A DNA stretch of 33,581 nt, taken from the IMG/VR virus record IMGVR_UViG_3300021326_000150; one strand, written 5' to 3'. Of the stretch, positions 7,113 through 30,949 are shown piece by piece. A program made the position numbers and the translations under genes. Source of the stretch: a virus. Within the stretch, counting starts at the first letter, position 1. Each line of letters starts with the position of its first letter. The notes below the pieces were generated by a model. The model did no database searches. It was not told the origin of the DNA and saw only the letters and a program-made list of their open reading frames with translations.

Positions 7113-8045
7113 TTATGCTCTGAAATTACCTTTGATTATTCTATTAGGTGCGTTCATTAACACACCGACGGAGGAAAGTATGAATAGCTTTGTATACATA
7201 GGTAATTCATCACGAATGTCCTTGCGCATGAATTCAATTAATGGATAGAAATCGTACATCTCACCGTCCGGGCCTAAAGGTGCAACGGTTGTTCCTGTAG
7301 TCCTGGAGTATAACAATTTCATTCCGGGGTTAATGTAGTCCATACCAATATAGGTTTTGTCACCCATCTCAGCACCACCGTCACAGACAGCAGTTCCAAG
7401 GATATCAATATTATCAACGCCATAATAGCTTTTGATTAATTCTACCGGTTCAACTTGTCTGTTGCTTGAGAATATGTCAGATTTTAAAGTTGTTAATGAT
7501 TTATAGCTTACGGCCATACTGTTTAAGTTAGCATAGCTTCCAGCTGATTCTTTGAATTTCTCTTGAGCTTTGAGGATGGTCATACCGGTATCGTCACCAG
7601 ATTCAAAGTCATAGGTTGCAACTTTGGATGAATTCATTATCATGTCAATAGCTGCCTTTTCAATACTTCGGCCGATAAGAATACCGACATCCTGAAGCAT
7701 ATCATTAACAGAGATTAAATTGGAATCGAGCATTTGTGCGGAAACGTTTAATACTCCACCGATAGTGTCAATGGAGATAGTTTCACTGATTGGTTTTCTT
7801 ACGTTTAATTCCTGAAGGGTTGCACCTGGAGCAATGTCTTTGGCCTCTCCAAGTACACCTGCCTGAATAGCTTCCTCGATATTAACTCTTTGAGACATGT
7901 AAGTGTAATACTGGCTGTTTTCTTCTATCTCTTGCTTTGGAAGTAATCTGGTGAATTTCATCCATTTGGCTGAAGTGTCAGCAACAATTTGAGCCATTAC
8001 TTCATTTTGTACTTTAGCATCATTTCCTTTTGTTAACATTAACAT
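7113..8045 (-). CDS. Major capsid protein paralog 2 (HK97-like fold)
   Basis: 310 aa. GEAKDIAPGATLQELNVRKPISETISIDTIGGVLNVS..LDS is an E-loop/P-domain-like pattern, then backbone helix D...IGRSIEKAAI. Lies downstream of a decoration gene. Confidence 0.8.
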   Translation of the reverse strand: MLMLTKGNDAKVQNEVMAQIVADTSAKWMKFTRLLPKQEIEENSQYYTYMSQRVNIEEAIQAGVLGEAKDIAPGATLQELNVRKPISETISIDTIGGVLNVSAQMLDSNLISVNDMLQDVGILIGRSIEKAAIDMIMNSSKVATYDFESGDDTGMTILKAQEKFKESAGSYANLNSMAVSYKSLTTLKSDIFSSNRQVEPVELIKSYYGVDNIDILGTAVCDGGAEMGDKTYIGMDYINPGMKLLYSRTTGTTVAPLGPDGEMYDFYPLIEFMRKDIRDELPMYTKLFILSSVGVLMNAPNRIIKGNFRA

Positions 8046-8052
8046 TCACCTC

Positions 8053-8991
8053 TTATGGCCTGCAAGTACCTTTTAAAGCAAGACCAGGTTTATTTAATAA
8101 TATACCTACTTTACTTTGTATAAATAACTTTGTATATTGAGGTAACTCATCGTAGATATCTTTACGCATGATTTCAATGATAGGATAGAAGTCTGCAATG
8201 TTTTCATCGCTTGTAATAGGTGCAACAGTAGTTCCAGAAGATTTGGAATACAATACTGTTAATGGTGCATTACGGAGATCAAAACCAATGTAGTCTTTAT
8301 CACCAATTAATGAACCGCCGTCAGCTTGGGTTGTTCCTAAAAGATCTATATTATCAATACCGTAGTATGCTTTAATATCTTCTACAGGTTGTACACGTTT
8401 GTTACTTGCGTAAGCTAATTGTTTAACATAGCTTAATGTCTTGTAAGACTCAGCCATTATTGTTAAATCTGCACCTGCTCCAGCATTACCTTTGAAAGCT
8501 TCTTGTGCTTTGATAACAAATTTACCGAAAGCATCCATAGTATCGTCAGTTTCACTGGTATTGTAAACAGGAACATTTGGAGAGCTTATTATGGTATCGT
8601 AAATGTTAAACTCAATACGATTAGCAATAACAGTTGCTACATCGCCTAATAAATCTTCAAATGAAACAATATCTGAATCAAAGACATCTTTATTAACATT
8701 AAGGACTCCACCAACAGTATCAATGGAGATAGTGTCTGTTACTGGTTTTCTGATGTTTAATTCTTGAAGGCTTGCGCCTGGAGCAATGTCTTTGGCCTCA
8801 CCAAGAAGACCTTTTTTAATAGCTTCATCAAGATTAATGTTTTGTCTAAAGTAAGTATAATAATCTGAGTTCTCTTTAATTTCTTGTTTAGGAAACAATC
8901 TAGCTAATTTCAATCTTTTTGCGGTTTCATCAGTAATAGTTTGAGCTATTACCTCGTTTTGAACTTTGGTATTATTTCCTTTTGTAATCAT
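8053..8991 (-). CDS. Major capsid protein paralog 1 (HK97-like fold)
   Basis: 312 aa, colinear with 7113..8045 over its full length. The two share a 23-bp identical DNA stretch at 7825-7847 and 8777-8799. Confidence 0.8.
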   Translation of the reverse strand: MITKGNNTKVQNEVIAQTITDETAKRLKLARLFPKQEIKENSDYYTYFRQNINLDEAIKKGLLGEAKDIAPGASLQELNIRKPVTDTISIDTVGGVLNVNKDVFDSDIVSFEDLLGDVATVIANRIEFNIYDTIISSPNVPVYNTSETDDTMDAFGKFVIKAQEAFKGNAGAGADLTIMAESYKTLSYVKQLAYASNKRVQPVEDIKAYYGIDNIDLLGTTQADGGSLIGDKDYIGFDLRNAPLTVLYSKSSGTTVAPITSDENIADFYPIIEIMRKDIYDELPQYTKLFIQSKVGILLNKPGLALKGTCRP

Positions 8992-21881: not shown

Positions 21882-23072
21882 TTAAAACACCCAATCCCAA
21901 TTATGGTTAATTATTTTATCTGGAATGTGAAGTCCAGTATCAGTCATGTCCTCATCGTCTGCATCCCACAATAACCTACTGCCTTTGTAAGCTTTAGGAT
22001 ATTCATGACTTCCTTTATACAATCTAATACCTGTTTTAGAATCCCTTTGCGTTACTGTTATTGCGGGAATAGAATTAGCTGCAAGTAATGGTGACGGGAA
22101 TATTAACATCCATTTCAGGTCAATGTAGTTGTATTCTTCAAAAGCGGTTGTTAAAAACCATCCTGGAGCAACTTCAATTTCATGGTAATTGTTGTCATAA
22201 ATTTTAGTTGGATTGTTTCTGTCGAATCCCTCCAGGTAATCTGAGTCACTGCTGAACCCGTTTGAGACTCTCCCATGGAAATGGTATTGTTTATAATTTC
22301 CCTCCTCATCACTGCCTGAAGCATATGCATCATTGGAATTAACCTGCACTAATGTTTTAGTTCCGTTAAACATTAAGTAAGATTTTTCACCGTCCCAATT
22401 CAAGGATGTGACTTTTATATCTTCCTGATATGTTGTGAGATTATAGTCAGTCTGCATCATGTATGTTCCAGTTGTTGTTCCATGATATGTTGCATTATCA
22501 TTAACATCCACACAACCGGAAATCCGTTTAAATCTTGCAACAGTAACACGATTGTTTGATAGACTTCCACCAGAGGCGAATGTTGTAAATAATGATGTTG
22601 GTGAACTTCCATCCATACTTGGAACAAATCTAGCTCTTAAAAATCTGCCCCCATCCGTTGAATCATTGTTGATACTTAAACCTGAGTATGTCATAAAAAA
22701 CTGGGAGTATGTGTCAGAATTTGCATCGAACATTAACACCTCACCACCAGTGGATAAAGTGCTGCTGAAGATGGTTGAGGTATCATAAACATCAAGAAAT
22801 AGCTTTGTTGTTTGGGAGATCTTACCGACCGGAACCCTGACCAGGATAGCTGCCGGTTGAGATCCATAACTTGGAATGTATAATACTGGACAGTTGCTTC
22901 CATCTTTGGTTTTGATCTTTAAGTTTTTCAAATCACTTCTGAAAAGATTGGAATAAGAACTGTTGGCCAGATTATCCAAGAAGATGTAATCATAGTTGGA
23001 TGAATAGCTACCGCTTCTTTGCGTGTAATTGTTTATTACAATATTGATTTGTAATTCCGCTTGCAATGTCAT
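21882..23072 (-). CDS. Putative virion surface protein with N-terminal DUF2341-like domain
   Basis: SDLKNLKIKTKDG..CP.LY......ILVRVP....KLFL pattern, then a beta-rich region and C-terminal YKGSRLLW. Confidence 0.55.
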   Translation of the reverse strand: MTLQAELQINIVINNYTQRSGSYSSNYDYIFLDNLANSSYSNLFRSDLKNLKIKTKDGSNCPVLYIPSYGSQPAAILVRVPVGKISQTTKLFLDVYDTSTIFSSTLSTGGEVLMFDANSDTYSQFFMTYSGLSINNDSTDGGRFLRARFVPSMDGSSPTSLFTTFASGGSLSNNRVTVARFKRISGCVDVNDNATYHGTTTGTYMMQTDYNLTTYQEDIKVTSLNWDGEKSYLMFNGTKTLVQVNSNDAYASGSDEEGNYKQYHFHGRVSNGFSSDSDYLEGFDRNNPTKIYDNNYHEIEVAPGWFLTTAFEEYNYIDLKWMLIFPSPLLAANSIPAITVTQRDSKTGIRLYKGSHEYPKAYKGSRLLWDADDEDMTDTGLHIPDKIINHNWDWVF

Positions 23073-23127
23073 GATTAATAATTTATTATGTATTTTATAT
23101 AAATCATATAATAATTATAGTAATATT

Positions 23128-23645
23128 GACATTAACATTAACGATTGCATACTCAGATGTTGAACCCCTCCGCACTTTGATATATATGCAAGGGTTGAGA
23201 TTAAATCAACATTAACAACAGTGCCCGTTAATGTCAATAACAATTATGGAAAACCTAATGTTAACAATAACTATTGATTTAAATTAACATTAACATTAAC
23301 GATTTGATATTTGAATTTTGGATGTGAATTAACGTTAACGACTGCGATTTAGGATTTAAAAGTTATTTCCCCCTGCACTGCGATATATATGCAAGGGTTG
23401 AAAAAGAAACAACATTAACGATAGCGAATGTTAATGTGAAAACCATTGCCAGAAATTAAAGCTTTGAGATATTCATTGCTTTAAATTAACATTAACATTA
23501 ACGATTACAATAGCTGAAGTTGAAACCGGATTAACATTAACAGTGACCATTTGTTAATTGAAACTTGCTTTTGAAAAGAAGTTGATGTATATGCATAGTT
23601 GAAATAGATATTGATTAGTAATACCCTTGCCGTTAATGTAATACT
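23128..23645. repeat. ~202-bp imperfect tandem modules rich in ACATTAAC with a GATATATATGCAAGGGTTGA core
   Basis: Core at 23179 and 23382, degenerate copy at 23584. The 27-mer TTTAAATTAACATTAACATTAACGATT is at 23278 and 23480. Confidence 0.85.
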
Positions 23646-23855
23646 TACTTCATTAAAATTATACTTGTTGATTTACATTTGTTTTAATTAACGATAACAT
23701 AAAGAATTATGATAGTAATATCTTGTTCGACATGTCATTATCACAATAACATTACAATCAGCCTTTTGAAATTTGAATTTTGTTTTACATTAACATTACT
23801 GTTAAGGATTTGCCCAGACCAGAACAACCTGACGGCACCCACGTTTTAAGCGAGC

Positions 23856-24590
23856 CAATTCGCCCCACCATAACCACGCCGACCCGAGGCCGACCAACGG
23901 GAGGCCGAAGTGGGAGGCGTGGTATAGGTGGGGTGAATAGAATTGGCGAGCATATACTATAGGGAGGAACCGACCCTTGCCGGTCGGTTCCGTATGGTTA
24001 CTTATGAATAAAAAGAGTTTACATTGAAATACAACCATTATATGCAGTCCGGCCTTTAGGTCGGACTGGATGCCTTGAGCGTAAGCGAAAGGCCAATACT
24101 ATAGGTCTAGCAATAATAGTTTTGTCAAGGTGCAGGAACAGGGGCTTGTCCCCTGTTCCGTAGTTATGGATTTGGAATAGCTTATTTTGTCAAAGTTAAA
24201 GGAACCGACCCTCGCCGGTCGGTTCCGCTGAGGTAAAACATGGACAAGCATGATCAAATTTTTTTAGTAGCAAACATTAGCATTATGTTCCGTCCGAGCG
24301 TAAGCGAGGACTGGACGCCTTGAGCGATAGCGAAAGGCCATACTATAGACAGAGCAATAATAGCTTTATAGGAGTCGAGGAATAGGGGCTTGCCCCTATT
24401 CCGAGTTTATGGATTTGGAATTATTGATTATATCAAATTTAAGAACCGACCCTTGCCGGTCGGTTCGAGGTTTATGAAATTTGCAGTTTAACTTACATCG
24501 GGCATTGGCAGTTGTGGGTAATTAAAGGGGGGCTTGTCCCCCCTTAATTAGGCATTAAGGGTTTCAATGCACGCCCGAACCCCACAAGAC
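23856..24590. other. GC-rich multi-hairpin region with ~240-bp triplicated unit (structured ncRNA or ssDNA element)
   Basis: GAACCGACC-6nt-GGTCGGTTC hairpins starting at 23966, 24201 and 24443. GCCTT-GAGCG(TA/AT)AGCGA-AAGGC at 24072 and 24317. GGGGC-TTG-(T)CCCC hairpins at ~24135, 24379 and 24520. Confidence 0.8.
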
Positions 24591-24718
24591 GAAATATAAA
24601 ATTTTTTAGAGGAAGTGAAAACATGTTCAAAAACACTTCCCCCGACACCTAATCAAAGAGTGATTCAATGAAAAGTCGTAGCTCAGGTGGAAAAGTAACA
24701 AAAAATACACCGTCATAG

Positions 24719-25696
24719 CTAAATTCTAGTTCTATTGAATCCCATATCCTTTAATATCTTATTATATTCCTCACGAGTTGTAAAAGAAGGTGAATCTTCA
24801 TCTCCAGTACTTCCAGTGTCGCCAGTGTCTCCAACATCACCAGAGTTTCCGGGATTCCTACCACCCGGTGTGGAACCGTCTTTACTAGCTTCAATTTTAA
24901 TTCTTCTCTCAGCCAGTTTCTCCATTAGCTCCATATCAACGTCACCGGACAATAGCTTATCAATTATTTCTTTATCCTGAGCATTCTCATTATAGTTAAA
25001 GTTGTACTTGGCCTCGTACTCTTTAATCTTCCTTTCATTCTCAGCTTTTCTAAGTTCAGATAATTCCTTTAAGATATCATCTTTACTTTCAATGAAGTCC
25101 TTATTTTCTTCAATATCTTTTTTAATTTCTTCATATCTTTCAGATTCTTCTTTTAGAGTTTTAATCTCTTCCTGAAGTTTTCCGATTTCCGCATCCTTGC
25201 CTTGCAGTTTCTCCAATAGTAAGGTAGTAGCTACATTAGCTTCTTTACTTGGAGGTTGAGGTTGTGGCTGCGGTTGAGGTGCCGGATTACCTGGTTCGCC
25301 AGTGGCACCGGTATCTCCAGTAATATCAGAATTCAACAGGGTAATTTTTCTAGGGCTTTTGGTTACGCCAACATCTATTAGGCTCATAGTATCAATTCCA
25401 AATGAATCTCCGTTATCTTTTAATAAGACATCTATTTTAGGGGATAAACCTTTTCCTTCCATATCCAGTTCATCAGGAACTTCAAGGAATAGTTTTCCTT
25501 CCTCGTATTCTATATTGTTTCCGATGCCAACGTAGATATTGTCATGTTCTGAAGTTAAAGGAATTCCTCCACGATAGTTTTCAGCTATTAGTTTTAGATC
25601 ATCTTCAGTCCATTCAACAGGTTTATCAAGTTTTTCGTCCAGGTCAGAATAGTCGTATGATCCAACTTCAAAAAGTTCATGCCTCATTATTATCAC
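24719..25696 (-). CDS. Prohead protease-scaffold fusion
   Basis: N-terminal IPLTSEH..G....LSP...DVGVT..PR resembles the prohead serine-protease His/Ser pattern. Pro/Gln linker and C-terminal coiled coil. Directly follows the portal gene. Confidence 0.78.
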   Translation of the reverse strand: MIIMRHELFEVGSYDYSDLDEKLDKPVEWTEDDLKLIAENYRGGIPLTSEHDNIYVGIGNNIEYEEGKLFLEVPDELDMEGKGLSPKIDVLLKDNGDSFGIDTMSLIDVGVTKSPRKITLLNSDITGDTGATGEPGNPAPQPQPQPQPPSKEANVATTLLLEKLQGKDAEIGKLQEEIKTLKEESERYEEIKKDIEENKDFIESKDDILKELSELRKAENERKIKEYEAKYNFNYNENAQDKEIIDKLLSGDVDMELMEKLAERRIKIEASKDGSTPGGRNPGNSGDVGDTGDTGSTGDEDSPSFTTREEYNKILKDMGFNRTRI

Positions 25697-25737: not shown

Positions 25738-27039
25738 TTATATTTCAACTCCACTGTCAGTTAAAATCCTTTCACCGACCGGTTGCTCCTCTTCAAAGTT
25801 ACTTAAATAGTTCTTATAGATTTCATCACCCTCAGAGGACAATTCCATAATATATCTTAATACATCATCACGAGAATAACTGAAGTAAACATCTAAAGTT
25901 TCTTTAACACCCATTAACTCCAATTGCCTCTTTAATAATTCATTGCAATACTTTAACACCCACTTCTGGTCATTAGCAACATTAACAATAAACCCAGTAA
26001 TAGCTGAATCGTTAATGTACTCAGCAACATTCTGATTGGATTTCTCATTACCTGCCTGTGACTGCGGTGTCACGAAAGTCCTTAAAATATTATTCCTGAA
26101 GATTTCCGTTTGCCTTGTATAGTCAGATTGATAATTGTTACCCCCAAGTATTTTAGATTCGATTCCTGGAGGTACAATAGCTACATTACTTCCGGCCGTG
26201 GTTCCGTAATCAGCATATAGGTTTTCCTTTGCAGTGGATGAAAGTTCTGTAATTATAGGCTGACCGTTACTGTCCAGTGAAGGTTTAACCTCAATAATAT
26301 TATCCTTATTAATACGCTCCACCTGATTCCTTTCAAGATTGCACTTATGATAAATATCATCCAAGCAGTTCAGGATAATGCTTTGGGCTTCTGAGTAGAT
26401 TTCATTGTACATGAAGTTAATAACCTCATCCGGTTCATACTTGACCGTTAATGTGCCTTCCTCAATACTAACGAAATTATTGAAGTCTTCAGGTGAACCG
26501 TTAACAATATCCTTTGGCATTTCATGAAGGTATAGCTGCACTTCATTATCATCATTAAACTCTTTCTTTAATCCGTAACCGTGAGCGCCGATTTCAAGAA
26601 ATATAGGTTTAATATATTTACCAATACTTTTATCCCATCTCTCTACAGGTTTAATTAATCCCTCACCGTCTACCATTCCGCCCTGAAGGATGTTCTTTGC
26701 AACTTGCGAAATATCAATCATCCTGGCCCAAAGTATTAAAGTCAATTTCTGTTCAGCAGATAACTTCTCTTCCTTATCAACCAGTACTATATTAACATTA
26801 GCTTTATCAATTCTATTTTTCAATACTCCTGCAGTGTAACCGTCAAGTTTAACAGCATACCTTGCGTTAGCTATAGTTTTATTTATTACAGGGGGAAGTG
26901 CATCAGGAAGGTCAAGACCGGTATTGATCCCGTCAGTACGTGGTTGTCTTTCATCCTCACCCCAATAGCTGCGCTTAGTATTGTACTGTTCCACACGGTT
27001 ATTCAGCAATCTGGTTTTTATAAAATCAGTAACGCCCAT
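25738..27039 (-). CDS. Portal protein
   Basis: ~433 aa, first large structural gene after terL and directly before the protease. DGEGLI, SIILNCLDDI, IVPPG..KILG, NI...F..P pattern. Start placed at MGVTDF. Confidence 0.72.
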   Translation of the reverse strand: MGVTDFIKTRLLNNRVEQYNTKRSYWGEDERQPRTDGINTGLDLPDALPPVINKTIANARYAVKLDGYTAGVLKNRIDKANVNIVLVDKEEKLSAEQKLTLILWARMIDISQVAKNILQGGMVDGEGLIKPVERWDKSIGKYIKPIFLEIGAHGYGLKKEFNDDNEVQLYLHEMPKDIVNGSPEDFNNFVSIEEGTLTVKYEPDEVINFMYNEIYSEAQSIILNCLDDIYHKCNLERNQVERINKDNIIEVKPSLDSNGQPIITELSSTAKENLYADYGTTAGSNVAIVPPGIESKILGGNNYQSDYTRQTEIFRNNILRTFVTPQSQAGNEKSNQNVAEYINDSAITGFIVNVANDQKWVLKYCNELLKRQLELMGVKETLDVYFSYSRDDVLRYIMELSSEGDEIYKNYLSNFEEEQPVGERILTDSGVEI

Positions 27040-27040
27040 A

Positions 27041-27205
27041 TTATCCATTTCCAATTGTTACTGTGAATAAGTTTTCAGTATCGACACTGTTGAATCTTCT
27101 GAGTTTAAAATCAGTAAGGTCCAGAAGGTTTTCAAGTTCGTGGCATGCGCTTAAATCAGAATCGTGTCCTTCATAGTCCAGTTCAATAATTATTCTTCTC
27201 ATCAT
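27041..27205 (-). CDS. Small protein (54 aa, below ORF-track cutoff)
   Basis: MMRRIIIELDYEGHDSD...; GGTGA RBS; stop abuts the portal start. Confidence 0.55.
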   Translation of the reverse strand: MMRRIIIELDYEGHDSDLSACHELENLLDLTDFKLRRFNSVDTENLFTVTIGNG

Positions 27206-27486: not shown

Positions 27487-27514
27487 TTGCAATTCCTGTT
27501 GCAAAAATTGCAAT
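27487..27514. repeat. Satellite cluster of three TTGCAA motifs
   Basis: GTTGCAATTCCTGTTGCAAAAATTGCAATTCC, the same unit as the 78-570 array, upstream of the portal operon promoter. Confidence 0.65.
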
Positions 27515-27621
27515 TCCAAAAAAAGAATATCAATAACACTACTAAAATCAATAACTAAAGATTAAAAGAATTGCTATTAAAAAAATAAGTAAAATAAAAA
27601 AAGTAAATAATATAAATAAAG

Positions 27622-29530: not shown

Positions 29531-30949
29531 TTATGTAGAATACCATTTATCAACATCAACTCTTTGAGGTTGCTTTTCACTAGCCAGTTTCTCATATGCA
29601 CCGGTGAATGCAACAACACAGTCATCGTGAATGGATTCGTTAGGGTAGGCTGTAATTTTTTCAAGAAATTCCATGGCCCATTTTTTAGTAAACCCTGTTC
29701 TATCCTTCCCAACCAGGAAAATTCCGTTAAGTTGGATGTCAGCTGAAACTCTTCTGGCACGGTCAACTTTATTCTCACGTGAATTTCCAGTGCCTGTAGT
29801 AAATCCTCTTCGGTTTAATTCATCAATAATTAACAGGCCAAAGTTCTTACCAGTGGAACCGTCAAGTTCTATATACTGCACATCCGCTTTATCACGCGCT
29901 GCAGTGTTAATGATTTCATTAATAAGATTCCGTGACTCCAATTGAAACTCATAAGAATCAAGGATGTAGATATTGCCGTTTAAATCTTTGGCCAGTAACA
30001 CTCCTGCGGTATAATCTGGATCATTACCTTTCAATTTGTCATCGTTGAGAACTTCAGTTGCAGCAAGATCCCAATACCTGATGATCCGGATGATAGGTAT
30101 TTTCAAAAATTCGTCATGAGAGATCAAGTGGAAATCTGATTCATCAAATAGCTCACCTTTAACTGAAGCATACCAGTTACCGTTCATTAACTGCTCACGT
30201 GTAACTCTATCCAAGCCCATAAGATATTCTTCATAGTCCTGTCTGTCCAGATAAACATTATCGACATAACTGGAGCTGATAAATCTTATCTGGTCTTTGT
30301 CCTGAATGTCTGCATCTATCTTTTCGATGAATCTTTCCCTGACCCATTTATTACCACGCTTACCAGGATTACTTGAGCACATTAACTGTGTTGGAAGTTT
30401 ATTGTCTTTAGTTTTTCGGACACGTGAACGCATATAAATATATTTAAAGCGTTCCAGTTGCGTTAACTCATCAATGCCAATGAACTGGTATTCAGAACCC
30501 TGATAAGTATCGAGGTCGTTAATGTTACGTAAATATCCGAAGGTTAAACTATTGCCGTTTGGAAATGTCCATGAATGTTCAGTACCATCCCACTTCGGCC
30601 GAATAGCTGGGTCTCTTTGAATCTCTTTACGGTTAAGCCATTGGCTGGCTTTATGAATTAAAGCACCTTTCCTTTTCAAATCAGATAATGTTCTACGCAA
30701 TATTAATGCATGGTATTCATTAACATCGTCCTGAACATAAAATAAGGCTCTCATTAACAGGCTGGTTGATTTACTACCTCCAGCGGCACCACCAATTAGA
30801 ACTTCCTTTTCTGTTGCTAGAATCATCTCAGCTTGTTTGACAAATGGTTTAAATGGTATGTATGGATTTTCATATACACATTTTTGAAGAATAGCTTTGT
30901 CTCTTGCACCTAAATAGAATTGGCCATCTTTATTGTACATTATTATCAT
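29531..30949 (-). CDS. terL: Terminase large subunit
   Basis: Walker A GGAAGGSKS, Walker B FIGIDE, motif III SSNPG, nuclease RYWDLA...D...HDDCV. Confidence 0.96.
   Translation of the reverse strand: MIIMYNKDGQFYLGARDKAILQKCVYENPYIPFKPFVKQAEMILATEKEVLIGGAAGGSKSTSLLMRALFYVQDDVNEYHALILRRTLSDLKRKGALIHKASQWLNRKEIQRDPAIRPKWDGTEHSWTFPNGNSLTFGYLRNINDLDTYQGSEYQFIGIDELTQLERFKYIYMRSRVRKTKDNKLPTQLMCSSNPGKRGNKWVRERFIEKIDADIQDKDQIRFISSSYVDNVYLDRQDYEEYLMGLDRVTREQLMNGNWYASVKGELFDESDFHLISHDEFLKIPIIRIIRYWDLAATEVLNDDKLKGNDPDYTAGVLLAKDLNGNIYILDSYEFQLESRNLINEIINTAARDKADVQYIELDGSTGKNFGLLIIDELNRRGFTTGTGNSRENKVDRARRVSADIQLNGIFLVGKDRTGFTKKWAMEFLEKITAYPNESIHDDCVVAFTGAYEKLASEKQPQRVDVDKWYST

Follow-up and report, generated by a model that had tools for sequence, protein, structure and literature searches.

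A GC-rich island of hairpins beside the head protease gene

We analysed IMG/VR virus record IMGVR_UViG_3300021326_000150, a stretch of 33,581 nucleotides (hereafter the window), and in it a GC-rich island of hairpins that lies in a 1.65-kb gap without genes (23073-24718), between the prohead protease gene and a gene encoding a 396-aa protein (p396). The first part of this gap is AT-rich (26-30% GC) and full of ACATTAAC repeats, together with three modules of about 202 bp. The second part is the island itself (40-52% GC, about 23826-24718, about 0.9 kb), which holds the hairpin units reported by an earlier sequence-only reading of this DNA. By blastn, the closest public virus to the region is Caudoviricetes sp. 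vir323 (BK063679/NC_133304; 95% query coverage, 81% identity), a 34-kb circular genome with a host given as Methanobacteriales; when the first 25 kb of the window were queried, about 80% identity to vir323 was found over 47% of this length. The host virus is a tailed virus of gut methanogens (Methanobacteriales), and within one group of Methanobrevibacter-type methanogen (pro)viruses the island is a constant element.

Read on the + strand, the island consists of a leader, a rod A, a hairpin H1, n copies of the cassette [P2/P3, linker, P4, linker, H1], a pseudoknotted T domain, a hairpin T2 and a tail. In the window n is 2, a cassette of about 240 nt being tandemly duplicated. The parts are listed below; BRE stands for TFB recognition element.

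Upstream of the leader by a further 22-30 nt or so, in relatives: TATA-like AT-rich patch, putative promoter
23826..23849, + strand: conserved leader AACCTKRCCRYACCCAYGTTWTAA; in 24 upstream loci lined up by eye, conservation ends about 25-45 nt before A
23850..23951, + strand: rod hairpin A, with base GC-[G.A/A.G]-GCCAATTC, AATA and AGT bulges, and tip module GA-CC-AAC-GG-GA
23954..23962, + strand: first of three copies of the motif ATACTATAG, following the G.A hairpin (rod A)
23966..23991, + strand: H1a, 10-bp stem GGAACCGACC/GGTCGGTTCC with loop CTTGCC
23992..24041, + strand: spacer 1, AT-rich, with a BRE/TATA-like AAAAAGAG-TTTACATT that begins 29 nt before the GTCC of P2
24042..24071, + strand: P2 of unit 1, long GTCC/GGAC stem with tip type 1, GGCC-TTTA-GGTC
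24072..24093, + strand: P3 of unit 1, GCCTT-GA-GC-GTAA-GC-GA-AAGGC, immediately abutting P2
24094..24134, + strand: linker 1, about 40 nt, AU-rich, with ATACTATAG (24096-24104), CAATAAT and TTTGTCAA
24135..24159, + strand: P4 of unit 1, GGAACAGGGG-CTTGT-CCCCTGTTCC
24160..24200, + strand: linker 2, about 40 nt, AU-rich, with the tail TTATGGATTTGGAAT at 24164-24178 and a second TTTGTCAA
24201..24226, + strand: H1b, loop CTCGCC
24227..24286, + strand: spacer 2, including a T7 run (24259-24265)
24287..24425, + strand: unit 2, 73-78% identical to unit 1
24287-24316, + strand: P2 of unit 2, tip type 2, GA-GC-GTAA-GC-GA
24317-24338, + strand: P3 of unit 2, loop GATA
24340-24348, + strand: ATACTATAG of unit 2
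24379-24402, + strand: P4 of unit 2, GGAATAGGGG/CCCCTATTCC
24406-24421, + strand: tail TTATGGATTTGGAAT of unit 2
24443..24466, + strand: H1c; in several relatives a P4-type hairpin stands in its place
24502..24570, + strand: T core, closing stem GCATTG/CAATGC, internal loop with GGCATT on both sides
24519-24550, + strand: T hairpin TAATTAAAGGGGGG-CTTGT-CCCCCCTTAATTA, within the T core
24512-24518 with 24581..24587, + strand: T pseudoknot, TTGTGGG with CCCACAA, the 3' strand lying in an optional insert of about 28 nt
24602..24607, + strand: T6 run after the T domain, candidate archaeal terminator of a + strand transcript
24611..24640, + strand: hairpin T2, GGAAGTG ... CACTTCC, present in all relatives, reduced islands included
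24641..24718: non-coding tail up to the protease stop codon, conserved in relatives, reduced islands included
24700-24705: A6 run, that is T6 on the - strand, 13 nt past the protease stop; candidate terminator of the head operon

The hairpins, motifs and spacings (235 and 241) of the sequence-only reading all lie where it had placed them. Its triplicated multi-hairpin unit holds in part: H1 occurs three times (23966, 24201, 24443), but the body (B unit) occurs only twice, and domain T follows the third H1. The three H1 copies have the consensus GGAACCGACC-CTYGCC-GGTCGGTTCC and are spaced by 235 and 241-242 nt; GGGGCTTGYCCC has three exact occurrences, where 0.67 matches would be expected at up to two mismatches. 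Most copies of A and most B units retain ATACTATAG, linker 2 carries TTTATGGATTTGGAAT and TTTGTCAA across relatives, and C-GA...GA-G flanks P4 in most copies.

Two hairpin designs recur. H1 and P4 share the scheme GGAAY-5 bp-YTTG(Y)-5 bp-RTTCC, while P3, the type 2 tip of P2 and the tip of A are all built as a stem, a G.A/A.G, a 2-bp mini-stem and a loop of 3-4 nt. The base of A is likewise closed by a tandem G.A, as is that of P4 in most copies; each island has at least six tandem G.A/A.G sites. The loop swap between the two P2 copies that had been noticed in the window corresponds to two tip types, and types 1 and 2 are interchanged among loci. T2 has a variant, GGAAATG/CATTTCC, in relatives; its pair counts are void, the MAFFT alignment being misaligned there. 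In the tail, a word resembling the D arm of a tRNA, GTAGCTCAGGTGG (24678-24690), stands alone, with neither a tRNA call nor a conserved open reading frame (ORF) at that place.

Conservation and covariation of the hairpins

Among ten islands with one unit, the mean pairwise identity is 0.91 in A, 0.88 in P2-P3 and 0.92 in the T core, versus 0.52-0.58 in the spacers (0.58 in spacer 1) and 0.38 upstream of the leader, so that the contrast of conserved stems and diverging spacers, first seen between the copies of the window, extends to its relatives.

A covariance model of A plus H1 (R1, 143 positions) was used to align 72 distinct copies. These are 93.8% paired, and 23 of the 40 pairs are changed on both sides, compared with 12.2 ± 1.8 in column shuffles and 7-11 with slid partners. 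The covariation score is 0.196, against 0.079 in shuffles and at most 0.042 with slid partners, and 47 copies analysed earlier agreed with this. In the underlying alignment (A6), rod A comprises seven helices with 30 pairs in all; these helices are 87-99% paired, and two-sided changes affect 16 of the pairs. The H1 helix (helix 8) is 90.6% paired, with two-sided changes in 7 of 10 pairs. Two observations are independent of model fitting. A exists in long and short forms, set apart by matching losses of 10 and 11 nt in its two arms, and the 2-bp mini-stem at the tip of A takes CG, GC, UA and AU between invariant G.A dinucleotides.

For the B unit, a plain, unfitted MAFFT alignment of 41 units is 94.7% paired and contains four clean covarying pairs without half-changed intermediates, the number of varying pairs not being above that of shuffles. 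In P2, 24 units have GC and 16 have AU at pair 9-38, and 19 have GC and 18 have CG at pair 20-27. P4 is 98.4% paired. The C-G to T-A double change that the sequence-only reading had described between the two P4 copies is present and recurs in homologues, where 24 units have CG and 17 have UA at pair 109-127, none of the 41 being half-changed; pair 110-126 is AU in 35 and GC in 6. P3 is 98.3% paired, five of its seven pairs and both G.A dinucleotides being invariant in the 41 units; its conservation, as read from this alignment, is at the level of sequence and not of covariation. The stems of T are 96-99% paired and nearly invariant (pair 79-103 is GC in 21, UA in 12 and AU in 2). The insert that carries the 3' strand of the pseudoknot is found in 16-17 of 37 copies, in which the helix is 77.6% paired, with GTGAG/CTCAC, ATTGG/CCAAT and TGGGTAA/TTACCCA among the variants read by eye; the predicted pseudoknot thus has moderate support. 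A linker helix ACAA/TTGT was not supported (84.8% paired).

A stretch of 761 nt folds far better than its dinucleotide shuffles as + strand RNA (z = -9.1), as - strand RNA (z = -12.6) and as + strand DNA (z = -8.8). As hairpins would predict, folding energy alone identifies neither the strand nor the molecule. The hairpins exist, are far better conserved than the spacers, and their pairing is held through two-sided changes and matched deletions.

Relatives, synteny and cassette number

By blastn, the island matches 46 of the 103 genomes of the nearest genome's genus. R1 finds members in 17 of the 137 genomes sampled from the family, spread over three genera, and none in 14 genomes of two sister families. 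All 31 metagenome contigs with a 20-mer of A are true members (115-169 bits with R1). A 15-mer scan of IMG/VR gave 106 stretches, from which 79 further loci (L078-L156) were fetched; all 79 were negative with R1, which thus gave no false hits among them, and a vir323-like contig was the sole member. Altogether about 100 related loci were reached. A covariance-model search, a check of the kind that the sequence-only reading had proposed, has found homologues with covariation, and the synteny, segment conservation and covariation in these loci support its central claim of a functional, folded, single-stranded nucleic acid.

In nearly all loci fetched, the protease gene directly adjoins the T end of the island, the island lying 3' of the gene. 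In three proviruses within complete chromosomes the order is protease gene, island, AT-rich region and p396 gene; in two of these, 1-5 additional genes (up to 7.5 kb) intervene between the island and the p396 gene. The slot beside the island is an inter-operon gap that accepts cargo genes. The same reading had located the element where the major capsid protein (MCP) gene would normally be: this is true of the position only, the MCP-like genes being found at 7113-8991. The cargo of one provirus of genome G065 (L075, 5218-12499) consists of five ORFs, of 401, 92, 1116 and 454 aa on the + strand and of 324 aa on the - strand, and that of the G019 provirus (L077, 628-2004) of a lone 458-aa ORF. 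The slot is an accessory-gene hot spot, perhaps for defence genes.

Cassette number varies: among 35 distinct complete islands, n is 0 in 7, 1 in 20 and 2 in 8. Most islands, and vir323 with its single B unit, hold fewer units; the window therefore carries one cassette, of about 240 nt, that has been duplicated in tandem. In one lineage P4 is duplicated (both G065 proviruses, loci L031 and L048), and reduced islands occur, for example H1 alone with T2. The island is thus conserved, covarying, syntenic and modular.

Two loci depart from this arrangement. In a complete chromosome of another genus (G153; L071, 1480-1775), a solo partial copy with leader, A, H1, spacer, P2 and P3 stops abruptly after P3 and is flanked by cellular genes (a C_GCAxxG_C_C redox protein, a GNAT acetyltransferase and DUF169); it scores 122 bits with R1, and its stems are therefore intact. 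At the end of a contig of G020 (L070, 1150-1395 and 2020-2267), two degenerate A+H1 copies (59-61 bits, 40-42% GC) form a direct repeat of about 250 bp; their starts are about 870 bp apart, with a 77-aa ORF between them and no protease gene nearby.

Searches against known families and element types

The whole window had no match at gathering score in Rfam 15 (4227 models), in agreement with the claim that the element is undescribed. With permissive filters, 22900-24900 gave only matches at E 0.37 or worse; GA-cis RNA (RF02987), at 24043-24104, reached 18.1 bits (E = 1.3), its gathering score being 34.7 bits. ARAGORN called no tRNA or transfer-messenger RNA in the window. No RTGATGA, the C box (RUGAUGA) of box C/D sRNAs, occurs on either strand of 23840-24720, and H/ACA RNAs were rejected by inspection, no boxes being seen. 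In neither Rfam nor the literature searched was a description of the element found. It is undescribed, although its general kind, that of orphan structured viral elements such as GOLLD and ROOL, is known.

Tandem G.A/A.G, as in a kink-turn (K-turn), is present, with G.A facing G.A in P3, P2 type 2, the base and tip of A and the base of P4. The island thereby resembles the kink-turns and K-loops bound by archaeal L7Ae, having invariant tandem G.A/A.G of the sheared type beside a short stem and loop. It differs from them in that its sites are symmetric and C/D and H/ACA boxes are absent. K-turns and K-loops were rejected on inspection: the 3-nt bulge is missing at every G.A site, all of which are 2x2 internal loops, and the bulges of A (AGT/TGT, AATA) are not followed by G.A opposite A.G.

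Neither strand of the island has a conserved ORF. Two ORFs of the - strand are open in no copies but the window's own, and a 60-aa + strand ORF over rod A is an artefact of GC-rich sequence, open and more than 80% covered in only 11 loci, two of them the window's own copies; its frame is lost across the matched arm deletions of A. Other element types were rejected as well. The P4/T core word GGGGCTTGYCCCC (up to one mismatch) occurs only inside islands in four whole genomes and is absent from a fifth, which speaks against dispersal of the kind seen in repetitive extragenic palindromes and bacterial interspersed mosaic elements (REP/BIME). H1 (up to two mismatches) occurs in 9 of 61 genomes, at 1-5 sites each and 17 in total, without an array-spaced run as a CRISPR repeat mimic would have; the five matches in G001 fall at its three island loci, and the CRISPR arrays of the hosts were not themselves extracted for this comparison. 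A phage attachment site (attP) was discarded because in the three integrated copies the island stays between the protease and p396 genes, internal to the provirus. Targets complementary to the conserved tail were sought in the window and three genomes, with chance-level matches only.

Strand of the folded molecule

Several features favour the + strand. The G.A/G.A motifs would be U.C/C.U mismatches on the - strand, and G.A is invariant in 41 of 41 copies of P3; for the base of A, where 50 copies were aligned, it is kept in 46-47 of the 47 without gaps. Of 72 copies, 67 retain one G.U pair. Folding is more stable for the + strand in 41 of 43 copies of A and 37 of 42 copies of B, T being neutral, and GC skew is positive locally and negative in the flanking genes. 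An early apparent excess of G.U favouring the + strand was dismissed, as it was due to one conserved pair and to doubtful RNAalifold pairs.

Archaeal termination relies on oligo-T runs that stop the polymerase, and hairpins are not needed. In 33 islands, we counted 80 runs of T4 or more and only five of T5 or more, the window being among the exceptions; an A5 run just after H1a, that is T5 on the - strand, is found in 22 of the 33. The scarcity of T5 on the + strand and its frequency on the - strand therefore fit + strand transcription through the island and - strand termination, evidence that is only moderate because many of these T and A runs are homologous. A and each P2 are preceded, at a spacing plausible for a promoter, by BRE/TATA-like patches: of 30 distinct spacers, about 56% have their best TATA-like 8-mer beginning 23-33 nt before P2, with the same clustering on the opposite strand. 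Structured RNA genes classically stand out in AT-rich archaeal genomes as GC-rich islands.

In the transcriptome of the virus MSTV1, reads were counted on genes only (PMC11375127), and the island has no blastn match in MSTV1. For these two reasons that transcriptome gives no evidence on expression.

A proposed structured RNA locus and its alternatives

We favour the reading that the island is a + strand locus for a structured non-coding RNA, convergent with the head operon and made of GC-rich hairpins on AU-rich linkers, and put its probability, judged from sequence, at roughly 0.5. It would be transcribed as one RNA or as a short tandem set of RNAs, from the TATA-like patch upstream of A and perhaps also from one patch per spacer. 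The repeated G.A and YUUG-loop hairpins on single-stranded linkers could then form a multivalent platform, either a scaffold or a decoy, for a viral or host protein, and cassette number would set the count of binding sites. This is the simplest model because invariant, recognition-like features change in number with the cassettes: P3, the G.A motifs, ATACTATAG, TTTGTCAA and the YUUG loops, with GGCATT flanking the T loop, are the invariant repeats of this kind. Possible partners are an RNA-binding factor of translation or RNA processing, or a head-assembly protein; PHROGs and Pfam found no RNA-binding or replication protein among the neighbours and scanned ORFs.

In their way of working, though not as a family, CsrB/RsmZ sponges, adenovirus VA RNA and the Epstein-Barr virus (EBV) EBERs offer a parallel: they too have repeated similar hairpins, single-stranded linkers, a copy number that varies between relatives and, in part, a viral origin. 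The island's motifs differ from theirs, without GGA loops. With GOLLD and ROOL it shares a length of several hundred nucleotides, many hairpins with covariation, carriage by viruses or proviruses, a non-coding nature and a function not evident from context. Unlike them, it matches neither Rfam model, belongs to an archaeal virus, is modular with 0-2 cassettes, and is fixed beside a head protease gene, not near tRNA clusters.

Several points weigh against the RNA reading. The RNA nature, the transcription and the strand of the island are things we infer, and the role as a protein platform is the most conjectural step of all. In stems, G.U and A.C mismatches are equally common (78 and 70 cells), as they are in every subset, which weighs against one folded strand, because selection on an RNA or a DNA strand should favour G.U. 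The copies behind the A+H1 statistics are related and not independent and their alignment is model-fitted, so that the shuffle controls overstate significance, and P3 and T, being invariant, are uninformative on pairing. The G.A motifs come without the 3-nt bulge of a K-turn. In a positional test the TATA-like patches cluster equally on the opposite strand; the T4-T6 run at the post-T position is found in many relatives but is not universal; and a T7 run lies between the window's two units. Finally, the island folds equally well with DNA parameters, and its loop types (GNA/GNNA, TTTA, CTTG) and tandem G.A are stable in DNA too.

This last point leads to a folded + strand of single-stranded DNA, used when the duplex is unwound, as a lagging- or single-strand origin, a primosome-assembly signal or a hairpin promoter. 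We consider it rather unlikely, but the main rival and a serious one: the hairpins do form with DNA parameters (z = -8.8), the island contains the mini-hairpins GCGAAGC, GCGTAAGC and GCGATAGC, which we take to resemble the d(GCGNAGC)/d(GCGNNAGC) class, it adjoins the AT-rich ACATTAAC iterons and the three modules of about 202 bp, and no replication protein was identified in the scanned ORFs of the virus. The single-strand origins ssoA and ssoU and the complementary-strand origins of G4, phiX174 and M13 are also non-coding, strand-specific clusters of imperfect hairpins, with stable GNA/GNNA mini-hairpins and a long rod with internal loops. Yet the island is 3-5 times longer, and its nine or more hairpins, pseudoknot and variable cassettes exceed what the single-strand origins known to us need. 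The virus, tailed and with double-stranded DNA, packages with a terminase. A search with Pfam and PHROGs over 40 ORFs (all those of at least 150 aa included, of 93 ORFs of at least 50 aa) found neither a relaxase nor a rolling-circle Rep (HUH, Rep_trans or Rep-Arvir, PF25227, a recently defined archaeal family; PMC13107129). The neighbours are structural genes, p396 being lectin-like, cumulative GC skew has no origin-like turning point at the island, and the scarcity of T5 on the folded strand is a signature of transcription; equal G.T and A.C mismatches are not predicted here either. The role resembling a single-strand origin or an origin of transfer (sso/oriT) that the sequence-only reading had suggested is thus not shown, nor is that of a packaging RNA; a terminase is present in the virus, and no tie between the element and packaging emerged. 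The third role it named, a processed repeat-RNA array, would be possible.

The remaining explanations fare less well. A cis-acting operon boundary, with hairpins and T-runs that stop or insulate transcription or protect the 3' ends of mRNAs, would suit the position between two co-directional late operons, in a slot with up to 7.5 kb of cargo in relatives, as well as the T6 runs on both strands (24602-24607 and 24700-24705) and the A5 run after H1a in 22 of 33 islands. We regard it as improbable, for archaeal terminators require oligo-T and not hairpins, a T-run of the head operon already lies 13 nt past the protease stop, before the island is reached, and 0.5-0.9 kb of specific structure (G.A motifs, linkers, pseudoknot) far exceeds the needs of an insulator. 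That the palindromes act as double-stranded DNA, binding dimeric proteins such as ribbon-helix-helix or winged helix-turn-helix (RHH/wHTH) regulators or host Orc1/Cdc6, or extruding as cruciforms at an origin or a regulatory hub, is quite improbable: two-sided changes in many unrelated stems, arm deletions and covarying mini-stems point to intramolecular pairing and not to half-sites, the invariant G.A/G.A internal loops are non-palindromic, and H1 loops vary widely. It would nevertheless account for the equal G.U and A.C counts, which fit both strands mattering, and there are several small RHH/wHTH genes in the window and inverted recurrences of the H1 loop word ACCCTTGC beside the TATA-like cores of the AT-rich modules. 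Very improbable, lastly, is a selfish or mobile hairpin repeat (like REP/BIME or a miniature inverted-repeat transposable element, MITE) or a functionless, decaying remnant. Variable cassette number, swapped modules, the partial solo copy among cellular genes in one genome and the two degenerate copies about 870 bp apart in another are what such a repeat might leave behind, but GGGGCTTGYCCCC is confined to islands across five whole genomes, the H1 pattern is in only 9 of 61 genomes, the position is syntenic and fixed, no transposase is nearby, and purifying selection on the hairpins is strong when compared with the spacers.

Returning to the structured RNA, we tentatively suggest that archaeal viruses may here have their first class of large, modular, structured non-coding RNAs, built of cassettes, with hairpins that would bind, titrate or organise a protein and with lineages tuning the dose by cassette number. 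To our knowledge, very few structured non-coding RNAs are known from archaeal viruses, and viruses of gut and rumen methanogens have had almost no experimental study. The archaeal host, the cassette architecture and the fixed place beside the head protease gene are unusual. The element is long, strongly conserved and easily found in genomes and metagenomes with one model of 143 positions, and its natural versions with 0, 1 and 2 cassettes are a ready-made dosage series. If it is RNA, it gives a defined entry point for studying the dealings of a methanogen virus with its host; as a folded-DNA origin, it would point to the replication mode of a virus group without a recognisable replication protein.

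Gene neighbourhood and the AT-rich part of the gap

Gene identities were obtained from PHROGs, Pfam and the annotation of vir323. Nearly all identified genes are on the - strand.

7113-8991: two HK97-like capsid (MCP-like) genes
21882-23072, - strand: p396 gene, no hit in Pfam or PHROGs; its language-model features group it with viral proteins of the DUF2341/Laminin_G_3 (concanavalin-like lectin) kind
24719-25696: prohead protease
25738-27054: portal
29531-30949: large terminase

The window also carries collagen-like fibre genes, DNA methylases and a DpnII-type nuclease. The 396-aa neighbour of the island is probably a structural or receptor-binding protein.

The AT-rich part of the gap (23100-23800) contains about ten ACATTAAC(ATTAAC) repeats and the three modules of about 202 bp, which are centred on GATATATATGCAAGGGTTGA at 23179, 23382 and 23584, the last one being degenerate. 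On the - strand the modules read CAACCCTTGC-ATATATAT, with the look of a BRE/TATA promoter aimed at the p396 gene; alternatively, they could be iterons of an origin.

Five of the six exact copies of the 8-mer ACCCTTGC in the window lie within 23188-24456: two on the - strand beside TATA-like cores, one at 23623, and two in the loops of H1a and H1c. The H1b loop reads ACCCTCGC instead. As the H1 loops vary in relatives, this link between them and the AT-rich modules may be due to chance, and it was given no weight as a functional one. As a by-product of the motif search, the 16-mer TTTTTGGAATTGCAAT was found on the - strand at two distant sites of the window, 130-145 and 27507-27522.

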